DNA of 4,893 nucleotides from a virus (IMGVR_UViG_2693429700_000011:1-4893), one strand, 5' to 3'; counted from the first letter of the stretch, positions 93-4,893 are shown. Program-made: numbers and translations. The notes: a model not told the origin generated them from the letters alone.

Positions 93-2798
93 TTACCTCT
101 TTCTCAGGGAGTTTAGTCTCCAGGATTTCCGGGGCGGTTCAAGTAGCCTTGCTGCATCGGTATTGTTTTGCAGTGCCGCGTGAATATTTTTTGCCTGTTC
201 ATACATCTCCGGACTGATAAACGTTTTCCCGGCATTTTCTTCTTGCTGGCGTTTTTGCCAGTCCTCCAGTGTCACCAGTTCCGGGCGAATTTTCCGTGCG
301 ATTTCGGTTAATTGCTCTTTTGTGCCACTGATGTTGTAAGGCAAAGATTTAGCACGTTCTTTTTTTGCCAGTTCTGGGTCTACAGTTTCAATTTGATCCA
401 GAAGCTGCTCCCGTGCTCCACTGGTTTTCAACAGAGGAGGGAGGCTTGCGTTGTATTCTTTAATACAGGCTTTCATTGCTGATGCTGTGTGTTTTTCCCC
501 CTCAGGAATACGCCGAAATTCCACCGGAAGCGAACCGTAAAGGATGCCTGTTTCTTCGGCCCCGGCACTTACAGACAGTGGCTGTATAAGAGTGCTGTTG
601 TAGCTTTCGATCCACTCTTTCATCTGCTCTGGTGTCATCAGTGCTGGCAGACTGGCATTGTGTTTTTTAATGATGGCGATCAGTTCGCTAGAAGTAGTAA
701 CCACATATTCAGGAACCGGTACCGGAATGGCATATTCATCAGCGAATTTATCCGTTTCCAGAACATAGCTGTGAATGATCCGCCCACGCAGCAGTGCATC
801 ACTTTCCTCGTTCGGAATAGTTCCGGCAATGTGCCGTCCGTGGTAATACATCAGGCTGATACGGGCATCCTTCAGCATCGTGCTGCTTATTCCGTTGGCG
901 GAGTGATAAACCTCGTTCGGGAGGTTTTCATAGCGGCCAGGCTCGAAATATGACGGCCACATGATTTCAGTTGCTACAGGAGCTGACGCTTCACCAGTTT
1001 CATCACTGCAATCACGATGCGGATCGCTGCCAGCATTCTCATTGTGCGGATGTTCAGCGCCTTCCATTTCCTCCGGATCATTTTCCTTAGCTTCAACCTG
1101 ATTCTCTTCATCGAATGTTTCCTGGTATGTTGCGTCGCCCATCACCGCACCACAGTCAGGGCAGTTATCCCCGCCAGTCTGACCGCAGGCATTGCAGACT
1201 ATTTCCGGTTTCTGTTGCACTACTGGCTCAGGTTGTTTCACATCCGGGCTGGTTTTTACAGTTTCTGGCGTGTTTTGTTTCGTTTCTGGCTGGTTCTGGT
1301 ACACAGAGTCGCGAGTCTGGATCCCCTTTACCCATTTCGGATCGTTCGGGTCGCTAATTCCGTCAACAAATTCACCACGTGATGCAGCAAGCAATTTATC
1401 GGCATCGACAGGATTTTTTGATGGAATGTTTTTCCGGGCTTCATGGAGTTCTGCCCGCAGTTTCTGATATTTCGCATCAACAGAATTTACCTGTGACTGA
1501 GCATCCAGCGGCTGCGTGTCCTGATGATGTTCAGTTGCATCCGGTTCCACTGTTTCAGCCGTTGCCTGTTTATCTGCCATTGCGCAAGATGGTTGCGGTT
1601 TTTCTTCACCATCGTGTTTTCCTTCTTCTGTTACACGCTGCGGCATTGGGGCAGAGGAACGACCGCAGGCAATATCCACGATTTCCGGATCAGGGTTGGC
1701 ATGATCGGTTTCAATCAGCACCTTGTTCAGATATTCAGTGACATGCGCAGGGATAACCTCGATCCCAATTGGTGCTTCTTTTACGGACGCAACCACGATG
1801 GCGCGGGAATAATCCAGCCCGCCAGGCATGGTGATGAATTTGTCGCGGAAAACAGAAAAGGGCGGTTTATTTTCAGAGATAATTTCCTCGACACGTTTAG
1901 CGTGTGCCGGATGAAGGTTATAAATGTCCACGTCCATTGAACGGGCCAGGACGCCAGTGGCTACGTCGCGCGCCAGTGACGTCAGATCGTGAACGAAACC
2001 TTCGCCGCGATCGGTGAGGTTCCCGCCGCCAGCATTAGCGCCGGAAGCCGTGCGCGTGATGCGTGAAACACGATTTCCTTTCATCCACTCTTTTGTCAGC
2101 AGACCACGATCGGTGTAGTCTGCGTCCAGGTATGCTTCGAAAAAAGCAGTCATCAGCCCCAGGCTTGAATTGCCTGGATTAGGGAAAACTCTGTCAGTAT
2201 CACGCACCAGTTTGTGGAGATCGCGAATTTCCAGCGGGTCGAGCAGGCTGGTTTTGTGGGAAACAGCCAGGGCAGTAACAGCTGGTAGTTCTTCAGCTCG
2301 TGCAATGTGTAATGCCTGGAGTTCGTCGCGTGAAACGTGCGTTACCGGTTTTTCGCTGCCGTGTTGAGCAAGCCAGCGAATGGGCAGCTCCTGACCGGAA
2401 ATCGGGAGTAGCATATTCTCCTCAATCTCCGTCATGTCTTCGCCATTAACATTGGTATTGTCAGTGCTGGCTGGTTTGTCCTGCGCAGAGGATGAGGGCG
2501 CGATAAATACCATTGTGATGCCATCTTCCCCGCCTTTTTTGTAACGGTTGCAGAATTCCGTATCAAATACGCCCTCTGGTGGAAGGTCATCAACAACGGG
2601 CAAATTGACGCGAACAGGTTTTTTAAAGTCATCTTCATCGTAGCCAGCATCGTCAATCGCAACAGCACCACGGGATATGGCAATGGATAATTTTTTCGCT
2701 TCAGCCCAGTAGAAACCGCCTTTAATACCGAGACGTTTTCTTACTTTGTCATTTTTTGCTTCGTAATACAGTGGGTAAACTTGTTTATCGGTGCTCAT
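93..2798 (-). CDS. recE: RecE-like exodeoxyribonuclease VIII (Rac prophage type), 3' end interrupted by IS insertion; ORF is a recE-IS chimera and probably non-functional
   Basis: 901-aa ORF from the track. ATG at complement 2796-2798 with GAGG about 11 nt upstream. Internal sequence ([45 protein letters not shown]...[27 protein letters not shown]...) matches E. coli RecE as I remember it. Synteny with racC, ydaE and kilR supports the call. The frame crosses the IS junction at 141/142, so roughly the last 15-16 residues and the TAA stop (93-95) are IS-encoded. Confidence 0.85.
105..141 (-). repeat. Terminal inverted repeat (IRL) of the IS3-family element; inner boundary approximate
   Basis: Outermost ~37 bp of the element starting with TGAACCGCCCC on the minus strand. 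The right-hand copy is outside the window, so the IR length cannot be measured here. Confidence 0.55.
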
Positions 2799-2867
2799 TG
2801 TTTTTTTAACCTCAACTTAGATTAAAATTACTGCGAGTGATGAATAAATGTCCCAGGTTCTTCACTC

Positions 2868-2900
2868 AGGCCTGCACAGTGTGCAGGCTTTCTTTTTTTT
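2868..2900 (+). terminator. Intrinsic (rho-independent) terminator-like hairpin plus T-tract, oriented on the plus strand, antisense to the racC-recE operon
   Basis: Perfect 8-bp GC-rich stem GCCTGCAC (2870-2877) / GTGCAGGC (2881-2888) with loop AGT, extendable by flanking A-T and G-U pairs. It is followed directly by TTTCTTTTTTTT (2889-2900). On the minus strand the hairpin is preceded, not followed, by the A/T run, so it is not a terminator for recE-direction transcription. Confidence 0.5.
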
Positions 2901-2928
2901 CAGATTTCACCCTTTGATTTCATTGCAA

Positions 2929-3174
2929 TCAGAGTTGCCAGAAATTCGGCTTTTTTTCTGCGGGCAGATTCTTTCCGATATGCACCAGGCACATTTTTTT
3001 GACGCCTTCGTTAAGTGTTTTAACGTTGCCTGATGGACCGTCGATATCAACCACAGTGAAAGGGGTTTCTTTATTTTCTGTTTTAATCACGTAGCCAATA
3101 CGCTTTCCTTCCAGGCTGACTTCGTGAACAATGTCATCAGTAGTAACAACAGTGGCTTCATAACTGGTAATCAT
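2929..3174 (-). CDS. racC: RacC (Rac prophage small protein), 81 aa
   Basis: Track ORF 2929-3222 contains MITSYEATVVTTDDIVHEVSLEGKRIGYVIKTENKETPFTVVDIDGPSGNVKTLNEGVKKMCLVHIGKNL..., matching RacC as I remember it. I place the start at the internal ATG (complement 3172-3174) because AAGGAG sits 6 nt upstream; the longer track ORF would translate through this RBS. Confidence 0.7.
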   Translation of the reverse strand: MITSYEATVVTTDDIVHEVSLEGKRIGYVIKTENKETPFTVVDIDGPSGNVKTLNEGVKKMCLVHIGKNLPAEKKPNFWQL

Positions 3175-3248
3175 GTTTTTCTCCTTAATTAAGGTTGAGC
3201 GAATCCCTGCCATTGCTGGCATAAACTCAGTTTCGGATAGTCAGTTAA

Positions 3249-3419
3249 TTAAAGTTCGTGTGCCATCTGGTCTTTTTCGGCACAGATTTCACTACAATAT
3301 TTTTTCATTTCCGTCGTTGGTATAACTCCACGCATGAAATGAAGTGGTCTTGTAATGATTTTGCTTTCTTCAATTTCTTTATTGCAAAGGTGATAAGCAC
3401 ATTTTATTTTCTTAGTCAT
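3249..3419 (-). CDS. ydaE: YdaE-like small Cys4 (putative zinc-binding) protein, 56 aa
   Basis: Not in the ORF track (too short). Hand translation of the minus strand gives [56 protein letters not shown] with stop TAA at complement 3249-3251. It has C-x4-C ... C-x3-C spacing and sits between racC and kilR as in Rac. The ATG overlaps the kilR stop. Confidence 0.65.
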   Translation of the reverse strand: MTKKIKCAYHLCNKEIEESKIITRPLHFMRGVIPTTEMKKYCSEICAEKDQMAHEL

Positions 3420-3640
3420 TACCATGACTCCGCCTTTACAGGTAAACCATCACGACCGAGGAAGACTCTAATCATGCAGTCAGAAATGCATGTTTTTGTA
3501 GTCAGGCTACGAATATAAAGTTTTCGCTTTTTAATATTGTTTGCCGAGGCGATATATGTCCGACCTTCATGAAGAACATAATCGCCAGGGGTCACACACT
3601 GACGTGGTATTTCATCAGTTCCGAAGTGATGAGCAATCAT
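3419..3640 (-). CDS. kilR: KilR (Rac prophage killing protein, cell-division inhibitor), 73 aa
   Basis: Track ORF 3419-3652 reads [78 protein letters not shown] place the start at the second ATG (complement 3638-3640) because GGAG lies 7 nt upstream of it; the first ATG would consume that RBS. The stop TAA (3419-3421) overlaps the ydaE ATG. Confidence 0.7.
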
Positions 3641-3661
3641 AATTATCTCCATTTTTACAAA

Positions 3662-3810
3662 TGAATTTTGTCGATGCGGTGCCTGGTGCCTCCAGGTGAC
3701 GTTAACCAGTTAACAATTAACGCCGGATACAGAGAATCCACCCATAACACTGTTTTTGGTTTTAACTGTTCCGCGTGCGCTTAGCCGCATTCACCGCATC
3801 ACAAAATTCA
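3662..3810. repeat. Long-range imperfect inverted repeat (19/20 nt arms) enclosing about 110 bp in the kilR-sieB spacer
   Basis: Left arm TGAATTTTGTCGATGCGGTG (3662-3681). Right arm 3792-3810 is CACCGCATCACAAAATTCA, whose reverse complement is TGAATTTTGTGATGCGGTG. The arms differ by one extra C. The enclosed segment contains a local hairpin CCTGG-TGCCT-CCAGG (3682-3696) and a tandem GGTGCCT GGTGCCT (3678-3691). Confidence 0.6.
3700..3722. repeat. Cluster of three (G/A)TTAAC motifs forming a CGTTAAC...TTAACG palindrome; candidate protein-binding site
   Basis: CGTTAACCAGTTAACAATTAACG: GTTAAC at 3701-3706 and 3710-3715, ATTAAC at 3716-3721. The outer 6-7 nt are reverse complements of each other. 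It lies 60-80 bp upstream of the kilR start codon on the kilR-sense side. Confidence 0.35.
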
Positions 3811-4179
3811 CTTTAAAAAGGGCGGCAGAGCAGCCACGGAGTAAAACTGATACCGCCAAACGTCACCAGAAAATTGATAACAGAGGGCGTTGCAGCGGGG
3901 TTGTCACTTAAGCGTATGGTCAACCTGACAACCCGGTGTCCTCAAGGGGAAGGAATAACCCCGCCATACTTACCGCCGCGCCATTTCGCGGAGTGCCACA
4001 ACCGGAAGTGCACGGTCGAATTAAATTTAACGACATCGTACAGTGAGACGAACTTCGCCGTGTGCTTTCGTGTTGTGTGCCTGTCTTTTTACCACTTCAG
4101 GCTCGGTGGTCTCGGCTATACCCCTACAGCGAGAGTCTGTGATAGCATTTTGATACCCTTACAGTAGAGAGTTATTAAT

Positions 4180-4713
4180 ATGCCTGATGTATTCGGCTTG
4201 TTGAGCAAGTTATTCAGTAACGAACCCTTAGAGCGCCTTATGTACATGCTTATTATCTTTGTTTTGATATTGCTCTTTATGCCTGATTCTGTGCCGGAGT
4301 ATGTTCAAGACAAAATCAGCATTCCTTATATTTACCCGGTATTCGTTTTTGCCTTTTCTTTTGTGCTGGCTATAAATCTCCAACGTTTAGCTTTATTTCT
4401 TCGTAAGATCTGGCGAAGTCACCGGAACAACACAAGAGAACAAAAAATAATCAGCCATATCAATGCAGTTATCGATTCCTTGACTGCGGGTCAGAAAAAA
4501 ATTCTCATTACGGCATTATCGAGGAACTATCCTGTGATCCATGCTGTACGCAATGATTCTGATATAAAAAAACTGGTATCTGCTAATATTTTGCTCCCCA
4601 TGGAAGGGCAACTCCTTCCCGACGAAAATCCATACTGCGTTTTGCACATAAACGATATTTTCTGGCGTGCCCTCATGCTCAGATGGAATGCCTATAGCGG
4701 TGAGATTGAGTGA
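4180..4713 (+). CDS. sieB: SieB-like superinfection exclusion / abortive-infection membrane protein (putative); start codon uncertain
   Basis: 177-aa track ORF with two predicted transmembrane helices (LMYMLIIFVLILLFM and IPYIYPVFVFAFSFVLAINL) followed by a ~110-aa soluble tail. It is divergent from kilR, at the position sieB occupies in Rac. Assignment is by synteny and topology, not remembered sequence identity. Only a weak GAGAG RBS precedes the 4180 ATG; in-frame Met21 and Met23 (4240, 4246) are alternative starts. Confidence 0.5.
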   Translation: MPDVFGLLSKLFSNEPLERLMYMLIIFVLILLFMPDSVPEYVQDKISIPYIYPVFVFAFSFVLAINLQRLALFLRKIWRSHRNNTREQKIISHINAVIDSLTAGQKKILITALSRNYPVIHAVRNDSDIKKLVSANILLPMEGQLLPDENPYCVLHINDIFWRALMLRWNAYSGEIE

Positions 4714-4714
4714 T

Positions 4715-4740
4715 CTTATTGCTCTCAAGCAATAATTTAA
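4715..4740 (+). terminator. Weak AT-rich hairpin just downstream of the sieB-like stop (possible terminator)
   Basis: TTATTGCT (4716-4723) / AGCAATAA (4728-4735), loop CTCA, followed only by TTT. The stem is AT-rich and the U-tract is short, so support is weak. Confidence 0.25.
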
Positions 4741-4817
4741 CGCTCCTTACCTGCCTCTGGTTTATTGAGAGTTTGAAACAAACTTTAGACTGGCCCCCTG
4801 AATCTCCAGACAACCAA

Positions 4818-4837
4818 TATCACTTATTTAAGTGATA
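4818..4837. promoter_or_regulatory. Palindrome inside the IS2 left end (TATCACTT-ATTT-AAGTGATA); likely the IS2 promoter/OrfA-repressor site
   Basis: Perfect 8-bp arms with a 4-bp spacer, seen directly. Attribution to IS2 transposase-promoter autoregulation by InsA is from memory of the IS2 literature. Confidence 0.5.
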
Positions 4838-4876
4838 GTCTTAATACTAGTTTTTAGACTAGTCATTGGAGAGCAG

Positions 4877-4893
4877 ATGATTGATGTCTTAGG
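4877..4893 (+). CDS. insC: IS2 OrfA (InsC-type) N-terminus, first 5 codons plus partial (runs off window)
   Basis: GGAG at 4868-4871, ATG at 4877-4879, then ATT GAT GTC TTA GG giving MIDVLG, the IS2 OrfA N-terminus as I remember it. Confidence 0.7.

Follow-up and report, generated by a model that had tools for sequence, protein, structure and literature searches.

We found that the 539-bp spacer separating kilR from sieB (positions 3641-4179 of the window, i.e. the whole 4,893-nt stretch of viral DNA analysed here) is the dicF locus of a lambdoid prophage, whose small RNA content is already known. We consider it likely that this locus sits in the early-left operon of a prophage mosaic between the Rac and Qin types, and that the long inverted repeat which it contains forms an RNase III processing helix. 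The original prediction, made from the sequence alone, had regarded the spacer as an unknown element, unless databases held a match to a known one. Such a match exists, as an Rfam search returned the small RNA DicF (RF00039) with a score of 75 bits.

This match, on the minus strand at 3820-3871, is well above the family cut-off of 48 bits (E 7.7e-16) and covers the model over its full length (positions 1-52 of 52). Upon alignment with the K-12 Qin prophage, the gene extends over 53 nt (3820-3872, minus strand), of which 52 are identical to K-12 DicF. The sole difference, A to G, changes a U-A pair into a U-G pair. A terminator hairpin is found at about 3821-3857 on the minus strand and is followed by a U5 tract (3815-3819, minus strand), so that a terminator scan reports a site at the 3' end of DicF; a stem-loop with a U tract is the type of end expected for an Hfq-dependent small RNA. 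DicF represses ftsZ, xylR, pykA and manX by base pairing with Hfq (PMC5069750), and with 52 of 53 nucleotides shared with the tested K-12 RNA, the copy of the window may have the same function.

The similarity extends well beyond the RNA itself. Identity to the ydfC-dicF-dicB spacer of K-12 Qin reaches 96.8% over 3660-4035; in Qin, the match starts 16 nt before the dicB start codon, and 176 nt separate DicF from dicB. The spacer is matched in 4722 of 5426 complete E. coli genomes and also in several viable phages, among which phage Tritos has DicF annotated at this place. In ML35 and CU37RT-2, the gene order is repressor, ydfA-like genes, dicF and kil, which places dicF in a repressor-controlled early-left lambdoid operon, upstream of a division inhibitor that is Kil rather than DicB. 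Given the Rfam match, the terminator and the identity with the Qin spacer, the spacer is thus a dicF locus joined to kilR, and not to dicB. The RNA is DicF, and its locus is homologous to the characterised Qin locus. The idea that the spacer might hold a stand-alone small RNA was therefore right as far as DicF at 3820-3872 is concerned, and wrong in placing this RNA in the inverted repeat domain.

The two flanking genes were assigned as follows. On the minus strand, kilR (3419-3640), the cistron downstream of the dicF module, encodes the FtsZ-directed division inhibitor Kil: its product matches phrog_294 “Kil protein” of the PHROG collection (E 8.5e-36), and kil is annotated at this position in near-identical loci. 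Its ATG is at 3640, and an alternative in-frame ATG is present at 3652. On the plus strand, sieB (superinfection exclusion B, 4180-4713, ATG at 4180) is divergent from the dicF-kilR transcript, and was recognised by Pfam PF14163 (E 5e-15) and phrog_6399.

Starting 7 nt past the DicF 3' end, a long helix can form in the minus-strand RNA, in which 3813-3792 (5' arm) pairs with 3681-3659 (3' arm) through 22 pairs, with one bulged base at 3672 in the 3' arm. Both arms came out of the inverted-repeat search, the folds and the arm alignment. The inverted repeat of 19/20 nt first noticed at 3662-3681 and 3792-3810 is therefore real, slightly longer than described, and the best of the spacer. When 3641-4179 was aligned with its own reverse complement (Smith-Waterman), the top alignment, of score 44, ended at 3681/3792, compared to a mean of 23.9 (sd 4.7) for 100 dinucleotide shuffles, one of which reached 44. 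In the transcript folded from the 5' end of DicF, pair probabilities along the helix ranged from 0.65 to 1.0, nearly all being 0.96 or higher.

Pairing of the arms is also conserved. We collected 24 distinct copies of the dicF-linked domain, found by domain motifs in loci anchored either on DicF or on these motifs. Among them, 95.8% of the cells of the arm alignment are paired, a figure that falls to 33-52% if one arm is shifted against the other by 1-3 columns. Compensatory double changes (C-G to U-A, A-U to G-C and U-A to C-G) are seen in three base pairs, as expected if the proposed structure is a genuine one. The helix and the domain which it closes are therefore real and conserved. In addition, 46 of the 528 arm cells are G-U or U-G, and these pair only in the minus-strand RNA, which supports the proposal of a conserved non-coding RNA structure in the kilR sense. 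At least four different cistrons are found behind the conserved arms (DicB variants, Kil, and two ORFs starting with MLNVAIENQ and MIPIITPRS), and the dicB and kil versions cease to be homologous immediately past the 3' arm. The helix thus belongs to the dicF module, and not to kilR.

The same data bear on the suggestion that the inverted repeat and the GTTAAC palindromes act as DNA sites, for protein binding, recombination or cruciform formation. The palindromes do exist in the DNA, and the mosaic junction between dicB-type and kil-type prophages falls right at the 3' arm. Against this, the wobble pairs are specific to one strand of RNA, the compensatory changes maintain pairing and not sequence, and the element lies within a transcript known to be processed. 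A DNA-level role is thus highly improbable. The GTTAAC cluster itself, though present as described, corresponds to the 10-bp hairpin at 3698-3724 of the folded domain.

The helix closes a domain of about 110 nt, the whole fold with the helix amounting to about 155 nt (3659-3813). Following the RNA from its 5' side, the GGUG that tops the 5' arm is followed by an AAU junction and a small hairpin (3773-3788, the two together spanning 3773-3791), seen in the fold and the Rfam alignment. In an alignment of 62 copies, this hairpin varies among relatives at loop positions only. Next comes a variable central arm (3725-3772), which in related prophages is replaced or carries insertions and deletions. 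It is followed by the 10-bp hairpin, conserved across the dicF-linked copies, and finally by the hairpin CCUGG-AGGCA-CCAGG at 3682-3696, the signature 3' hairpin that the domain has in common with STnc100 (see below), which was part of the original prediction and is found again in the fold; all these elements are on the minus strand. The tandem GGTGCCT repeat reported earlier is present in the sequence but is not a separate feature, being made of this last hairpin and the top of the 3' arm. As anticipated for a highly structured region, the 261-nt region folded better than shuffles on both strands (z ~ -4.2).

The 62 copies come from a search anchored on the DicF core, which gave 8 genome loci and 120 viral-contig loci; 121 copies had enough flanking sequence, corresponding to 62 distinct sequences. 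Nearly all of these carry the downstream domain. An exception is a Salmonella enterica locus (L006, 3663-3684), in which a DicF-like terminator scaffold has a different 5' part (GUGAGAGUUGGG...) and is directly followed by an ORF (MSKAQIVDLF...), without the folded domain.

We then compared this structure with what has been published on the maturation of DicF. In K-12, DicF is excised from a polycistronic transcript starting at dicBp, RNase III producing a species of about 190 nt in which RNase E then generates the 5' end of the 53-nt form (bioRxiv 10.1101/2023.04.14.536235). According to the passages of PMC5069750 and PMC9438474 that cite Faubladier 1990, the 3' end of the 53-nt form results from intrinsic termination, and a 72-nt form results from RNase III acting on the full-length mRNA. 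Counting from the DicF 5' end at 3872, and taking these sizes as given in those passages, the last nucleotide would be 3820 for the 53-nt form and 3801, a position within the 5' arm, for the 72-nt form. If RNase III leaves its customary 2-nt 3' overhang, the cut opposite 3801 would place the 5' end of the kilR mRNA near 3669. The helix has the length of an RNase III substrate (about two turns, i.e. some 20 bp or more), with its 22 pairs and one bulge.

On the upstream side, the published size of the precursor would place its 5' end at 4009, so that 3873-4009 (minus strand) would make up the 5' part of the ~190-nt species, in a region where Qin homology runs through 4035. Position 4009 falls within a long interrupted hairpin (15 + 9 + 5 bp) predicted by the folds at 3992-4082 on the minus strand, which is a probable upstream RNase III site. 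Taken as a whole, 3815-4179 did not fold better than shuffles (z = -1.4).

A comparison of K-12 wild type and an rnc mutant by RNA-seq gives rnc-dependent sites in two corresponding intervals: “dicF-dicB”, flagged as known, with 0 and 0 reads versus 26 in rnc, and “kilR-sieB”, with 0 and 0 versus 41 reads (PMC5371410, Table S1), these counts being low and the resolution coarse, as sites are at least 400 bp apart. Based on the published RNA sizes, the helix is most likely the site at which RNase III cuts between DicF and the next gene; the exact cut positions are inferred from the same sizes, and any effect on kilR expression is likewise putative. In K-12, the “dicF-dicB” site would lie about 36 nt past DicF, a distance obtained from the MG1655 dicB start coordinate and the 176-nt spacing between DicF and dicB, for a site with few reads.

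Taken together, these elements suggest the following order of events. A leftward polycistronic transcript, antisense to sieB, would carry the long hairpin, DicF and the folded domain in this order. RNase III would cut the upstream hairpin to yield the ~190-nt precursor, and the 53-nt Hfq-dependent DicF (3872-3820) would then receive its 5' end from RNase E and its 3' end from its own intrinsic terminator. Readthrough of this terminator would produce the domain of about 155 nt (3659-3813) closed by the 22-bp helix. Cleavage of the helix by RNase III would then yield the 72-nt DicF, detach DicF from the downstream mRNA, and leave the kilR mRNA with no more than some 30 nt of leader.

Proximity to kilR had suggested another role for the helix, as a gate acting in cis on the toxic kilR mRNA, at the level of its translation or its stability. 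The gene would be silent as long as the leader is unprocessed, and would be activated by melting of the helix or by RNase III. The base of the helix is indeed close to the translation signals, as the 3' arm ends 8 nt before the kilR Shine-Dalgarno GGAG (3647-3650, minus strand). The domain also precedes several toxic division inhibitors, namely dicB, kil, and terB/tciA in P7 and P1. Translation can also be modulated by RNase III sites of phage leaders, of which the λ N leader is an example. However, the kilR Shine-Dalgarno and AUG are outside of the helix, and their predicted unpaired probability is similar in the full, readthrough, processed and leaderless transcripts, being set by the downstream coding sequence. 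Moreover, the dicB and kil versions have entirely different sequences from the 3' arm to the start codon. Gating of the kilR ribosome binding site, as first proposed, is therefore quite unlikely. One local fold pairs the CUCC at 3838-3841 in the DicF loop, the anti-Shine-Dalgarno part that binds ftsZ, in cis with the kilR GGAG at 3647-3650. The helix would juxtapose both sites in this model, which involves only 4 bp and may mean nothing.

A second question is whether the domain that would be released by RNase III has a function of its own. The domain matches the Rfam family STnc100 (RF02076) over its full length, and the same is true in K-12 Rac; its score of 38.2 bits is however below the gathering cut-off of 47 (E 7e-6). 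At threshold, no STnc100 match was found either in a dicF-linked relative (L181) or in the P7 locus (L228). STnc100 and its relative PasD are prophage small RNAs described without an assigned function, and the paper that links them omits DicF. PasD is Hfq-dependent and was seen on Northern blots and by RIL-seq. Our literature search found nothing that linked the dicF-dicB spacer to STnc100 or PasD.

We also examined the family as such, by a scan for the shared hairpin motif TCACCNGGAGGCACCNGGCAC, which returned many canonical STnc100 copies. These score between 52 and 161 bits, and are often arranged in tandem beside phage tRNA genes. The middle pair of the signature hairpin is complementary in all 225 instances (T-A in 131, G-C in 94). 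The closing stem of the family was anchored on its conserved GRTG/CAYC ends, without reference to pairing, which gave 72 distinct arm pairs from phage contigs. Of their cells, 86.6% are paired, as compared to 20-55% when slid. Double changes are found in 92 cells, against 39.6 ± 7.8 after shuffling (none of 500 shuffles was as high), with covariation scores of 0.363 and 0.206, respectively. This stem is about 7-9 bp long in the wider family, and reaches about 22 bp, the size of an RNase III substrate, in the dicF-linked branch. The window domain has the closing stem of STnc100 (GGUG/CACC, with covarying pairs) and its terminal hairpin CCNGGAGGCACCN'GG. It lacks the C-rich first hairpin (AAUCCCCC...GGGG), which is replaced by GCGGCUAAGCGCACGC, where cmscan flags non-canonical pairs.

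One reading of these similarities is that the domain, at about 3670-3800, is a trans-acting small RNA of the STnc100/PasD type, released by two RNase III cuts in the helix. The operon would then encode two small RNAs, which is compatible with the processing of DicF proposed above. The full-length match, the signature hairpin and covarying closing stem common to the domain and the family, and the Hfq dependence of PasD all point in this direction. On the other hand, the score is below threshold, and the domain has neither a terminator of its own nor a U-tail, as it runs straight into the kilR ribosome binding site. Its central arm is freely replaced among relatives, and reads of the dicF-dicB stretch of K-12 are present only in the rnc mutant and not in the wild type, which suggests that the cut is followed by decay. 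We thus regard a second small RNA as unlikely.

A broader and tentative proposal is that the domain following DicF is a divergent module of the STnc100 type, acting as a kind of phage RNA “punctuation” placed immediately behind RNA genes of polycistronic transcripts, the small RNA in front of it being an exchangeable cassette. If so, the module would follow DicF here, a small RNA with an RprA-like seed in K-12 Rac and at least 10 other contigs, and tRNAs in P1, P7 and Stx-type phages. The closing stem would have grown to RNase III size in the dicF branch, the cassettes would share one terminator scaffold and differ in their seeds, and the domain, once excised, might itself act as another regulatory RNA.

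Tandem arrays of 2-6 canonical STnc100 copies were observed beside tRNA clusters in L139 (2265-3380), L198 (4349-5513), L146, L147, L157 and L132. No mention of this arrangement was found in the STnc100 and PasD papers that we examined. As for the window, ARAGORN finds no tRNA in it, and a tRNA-like element was rejected.

In K-12 Rac (L229, 8655-8760), the position of DicF is occupied by a different small RNA-like sequence, which has the same terminator scaffold as DicF (GGCGGCAUCAG...CUGAU..CCGCCCUUUUU). In its 5' part, 16 nt match the RprA core exactly (AUUGCUGUGUGUAGUC), and the resemblance continues on both sides. This RprA-like RNA was found in at least 9 viral contigs (L137, L161, L171, L174, L179, L181, L185, L204 and L225), and could be, judging from this resemblance, a prophage mimic of the RprA seed. 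A literature search for a small RNA described between kilR and sieB returned nothing relevant. In the P1 ban operon (L227), a “dicF-like region” is annotated at 68791-68892 and is followed by tRNAs. After these tRNAs and upstream of tciA, a 28-nt segment (70080-70107) matches exactly the top of the 5' arm and the first hairpin. In P7 (L228) and phage D6, 116-124 nt of the domain are found upstream of terB. Finally, dicF loci of the E. coli type were encountered under unexpected names: in contigs L008, L009 and L010, from MAG bins of Veillonella parvula, Collinsella sp. and a soil “Proteobacteria bacterium” (the L009 copy being more divergent than is typical), and in MT713136 and PP818812, records named Aeromonas phage AP1 (98% identity) and Actinobacillus phage vB_Apl-pPE4. 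Mis-binning of contigs or contamination of assemblies is the apparent cause.

The spacer had been described as devoid of any credible ORF, and our searches agree with this: none of its six ORFs has a Pfam match, and the only PHROG match is to a 31-aa ORF that overlies the RNA domain. This ORF (3658-3750) matches phrog_24763 (E 4.6e-17), and PGAP annotates a pseudogene, “DicB, incomplete”, over the equivalent of 3667-3750 in near-identical loci. The interval might on these grounds be a decayed gene, either an N-terminal remnant of DicB or a member of phrog_24763. Both matches are produced by N-terminally extended gene calls in dicB-type loci, in which the leader happens to share the reading frame of the dicB ATG. 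The real DicB begins with METLL or MKTLL, after the arm. In kil-type copies, a 1-nt insertion shifts the frame, yet the region is equally conserved. Substitutions at paired positions preserve pairing and not codons, and the ORF starts within the variable arm, which is rich in indels. A coding origin is thus very improbable, and we rejected the protein-coding readings, the PHROG and PGAP matches being gene calls made over an RNA leader. In RefSeq, the annotation reads “cell division inhibition protein DicB, incomplete” at L001 4027-4110 and L230 7038-7121 (about 3667-3750 in the window), and this spurious ORF seems to underlie phrog_24763 as well. None of the RefSeq E. coli loci inspected has DicF annotated.

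Besides kilR, the minus strand of the window encodes a recE-type exonuclease (93-2798) as well as racC-like and ydaE-like ORFs. The region 128-4089 is 99.3% identical to prophages of E. coli ML35 and O145 strains, and the sieB side matches other strains, so that the region is a mosaic. Beyond the dicF module, the sieB-proximal segment (4090-4179) is homologous to K-12 Rac and not to Qin, and presumably provides the promoter and leader of sieB. Shortly before the sieB start codon, it contains a direct repeat, ATACCCCTACAG / ATACCCTTACAG, at 4118-4129 and 4153-4164 (35 bp apart), which is conserved in K-12 Rac and may be a sieB promoter or operator element.

Insertion sequences are present at both window ends (1-127 and 4767-4893). 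On the right, about 4767 to 4893 matches IS2 ends, an IS2 end lying directly beyond sieB and including the palindrome TATCACTTATTTAAGTGATA at 4818-4837. The TATCAC half-sites at 4818-4837 were considered as a λ-type operator (pL/OL); this was ruled out, as they are the end of the IS2 element. On the left, 1-87 on the minus strand translates to MTKNTRFSPEVRQRAIRMVLESQDEYDSQ, which we take to be the start of an IS3-family OrfA. The recE-type gene is truncated at this end of the window by what resembles an IS3-family element (OrfA start MTKNTRFSPEVRQRA...).

In relatives whose operon is intact, a repressor-controlled promoter precedes ydfA-like genes, which are followed by dicF and kil. The window is a prophage fragment that IS2 has cut off from its immunity region and native promoter. 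Since IS2 directly follows sieB and the exonuclease gene is truncated by an insertion sequence, expression from the native promoter is unlikely in this genome, and the window copy may be altogether silent. An internal promoter for kilR was also considered and rejected: a promoter scan found no minus-strand promoter-like site in 3400-4893, and no second promoter is reported for the dicBF operon (bioRxiv 10.1101/2023.04.14.536235).

The puzzle of half a kilobase of non-coding DNA is therefore explained by a textbook prophage small RNA gene and its processing signals, a finding that is real but ordinary. Its value is partly one of annotation, as in the RefSeq E. coli loci inspected the DicF gene goes unmarked, while a DicB pseudogene or a hypothetical protein is wrongly called over its leader. 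In this Rac-type prophage, moreover, the FtsZ inhibitors DicF and Kil share a transcript, as DicF and DicB do in Qin. The new points are modest: from sequence comparison, the helix appears to correspond to the stem that closes an STnc100-like domain, and the small RNA that precedes it seems to vary between prophages.

The closest known system is the dicBF operon of K-12 Qin (ydfABC-dicF-dicB-ydfD), with which the window shares DicF, its terminator, the precursor region through 4035, and the downstream folded domain with its long helix, at about 97% identity. It differs from Qin in that the next cistron is kilR instead of dicB, homology ending after the 3' arm. In addition, the 3' arm of the window has a 1-nt bulge, ydfC is replaced by a Rac-type segment and the divergent sieB, and the operon is cut off by IS2. 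With the kilR-sieB spacer of K-12 Rac, the window has in common the flanking genes, the folded domain, the helix, the kilR leader and the sieB-proximal segment. K-12 Rac however contains only a sub-threshold DicF-like RNA (39 bits) with a 5' part like the RprA seed, whereas the window has a canonical DicF and a precursor region of the Qin type.

The likeness to STnc100 (RF02076) and PasD consists of the closing stem ending in GGUG...CACC, the AAU junction, internal hairpins, and the terminal hairpin CCNGGAGGCACCN'GG. The window domain departs from them by its lower score (38.2 against 47), its replaced C-rich first hairpin, and a stem of 22 instead of about 7-9 bp. It is placed in an early-left operon after a small RNA, whereas the canonical copies that we examined are in tandem arrays adjacent to tRNAs; in the literature, STnc100 copies are placed in late regions, near stx and Q.

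Lastly, the λ N-leader site and sib are RNase III sites of lambdoid early-left transcripts that affect the neighbouring message. By analogy with these sites, the window would have a long duplex in a pL-type transcript, whose cleavage by RNase III alters the neighbouring message. This likeness is one of description, and the duplex of the window differs in being a long-range closing helix, which would also define the 3' end of a small RNA.
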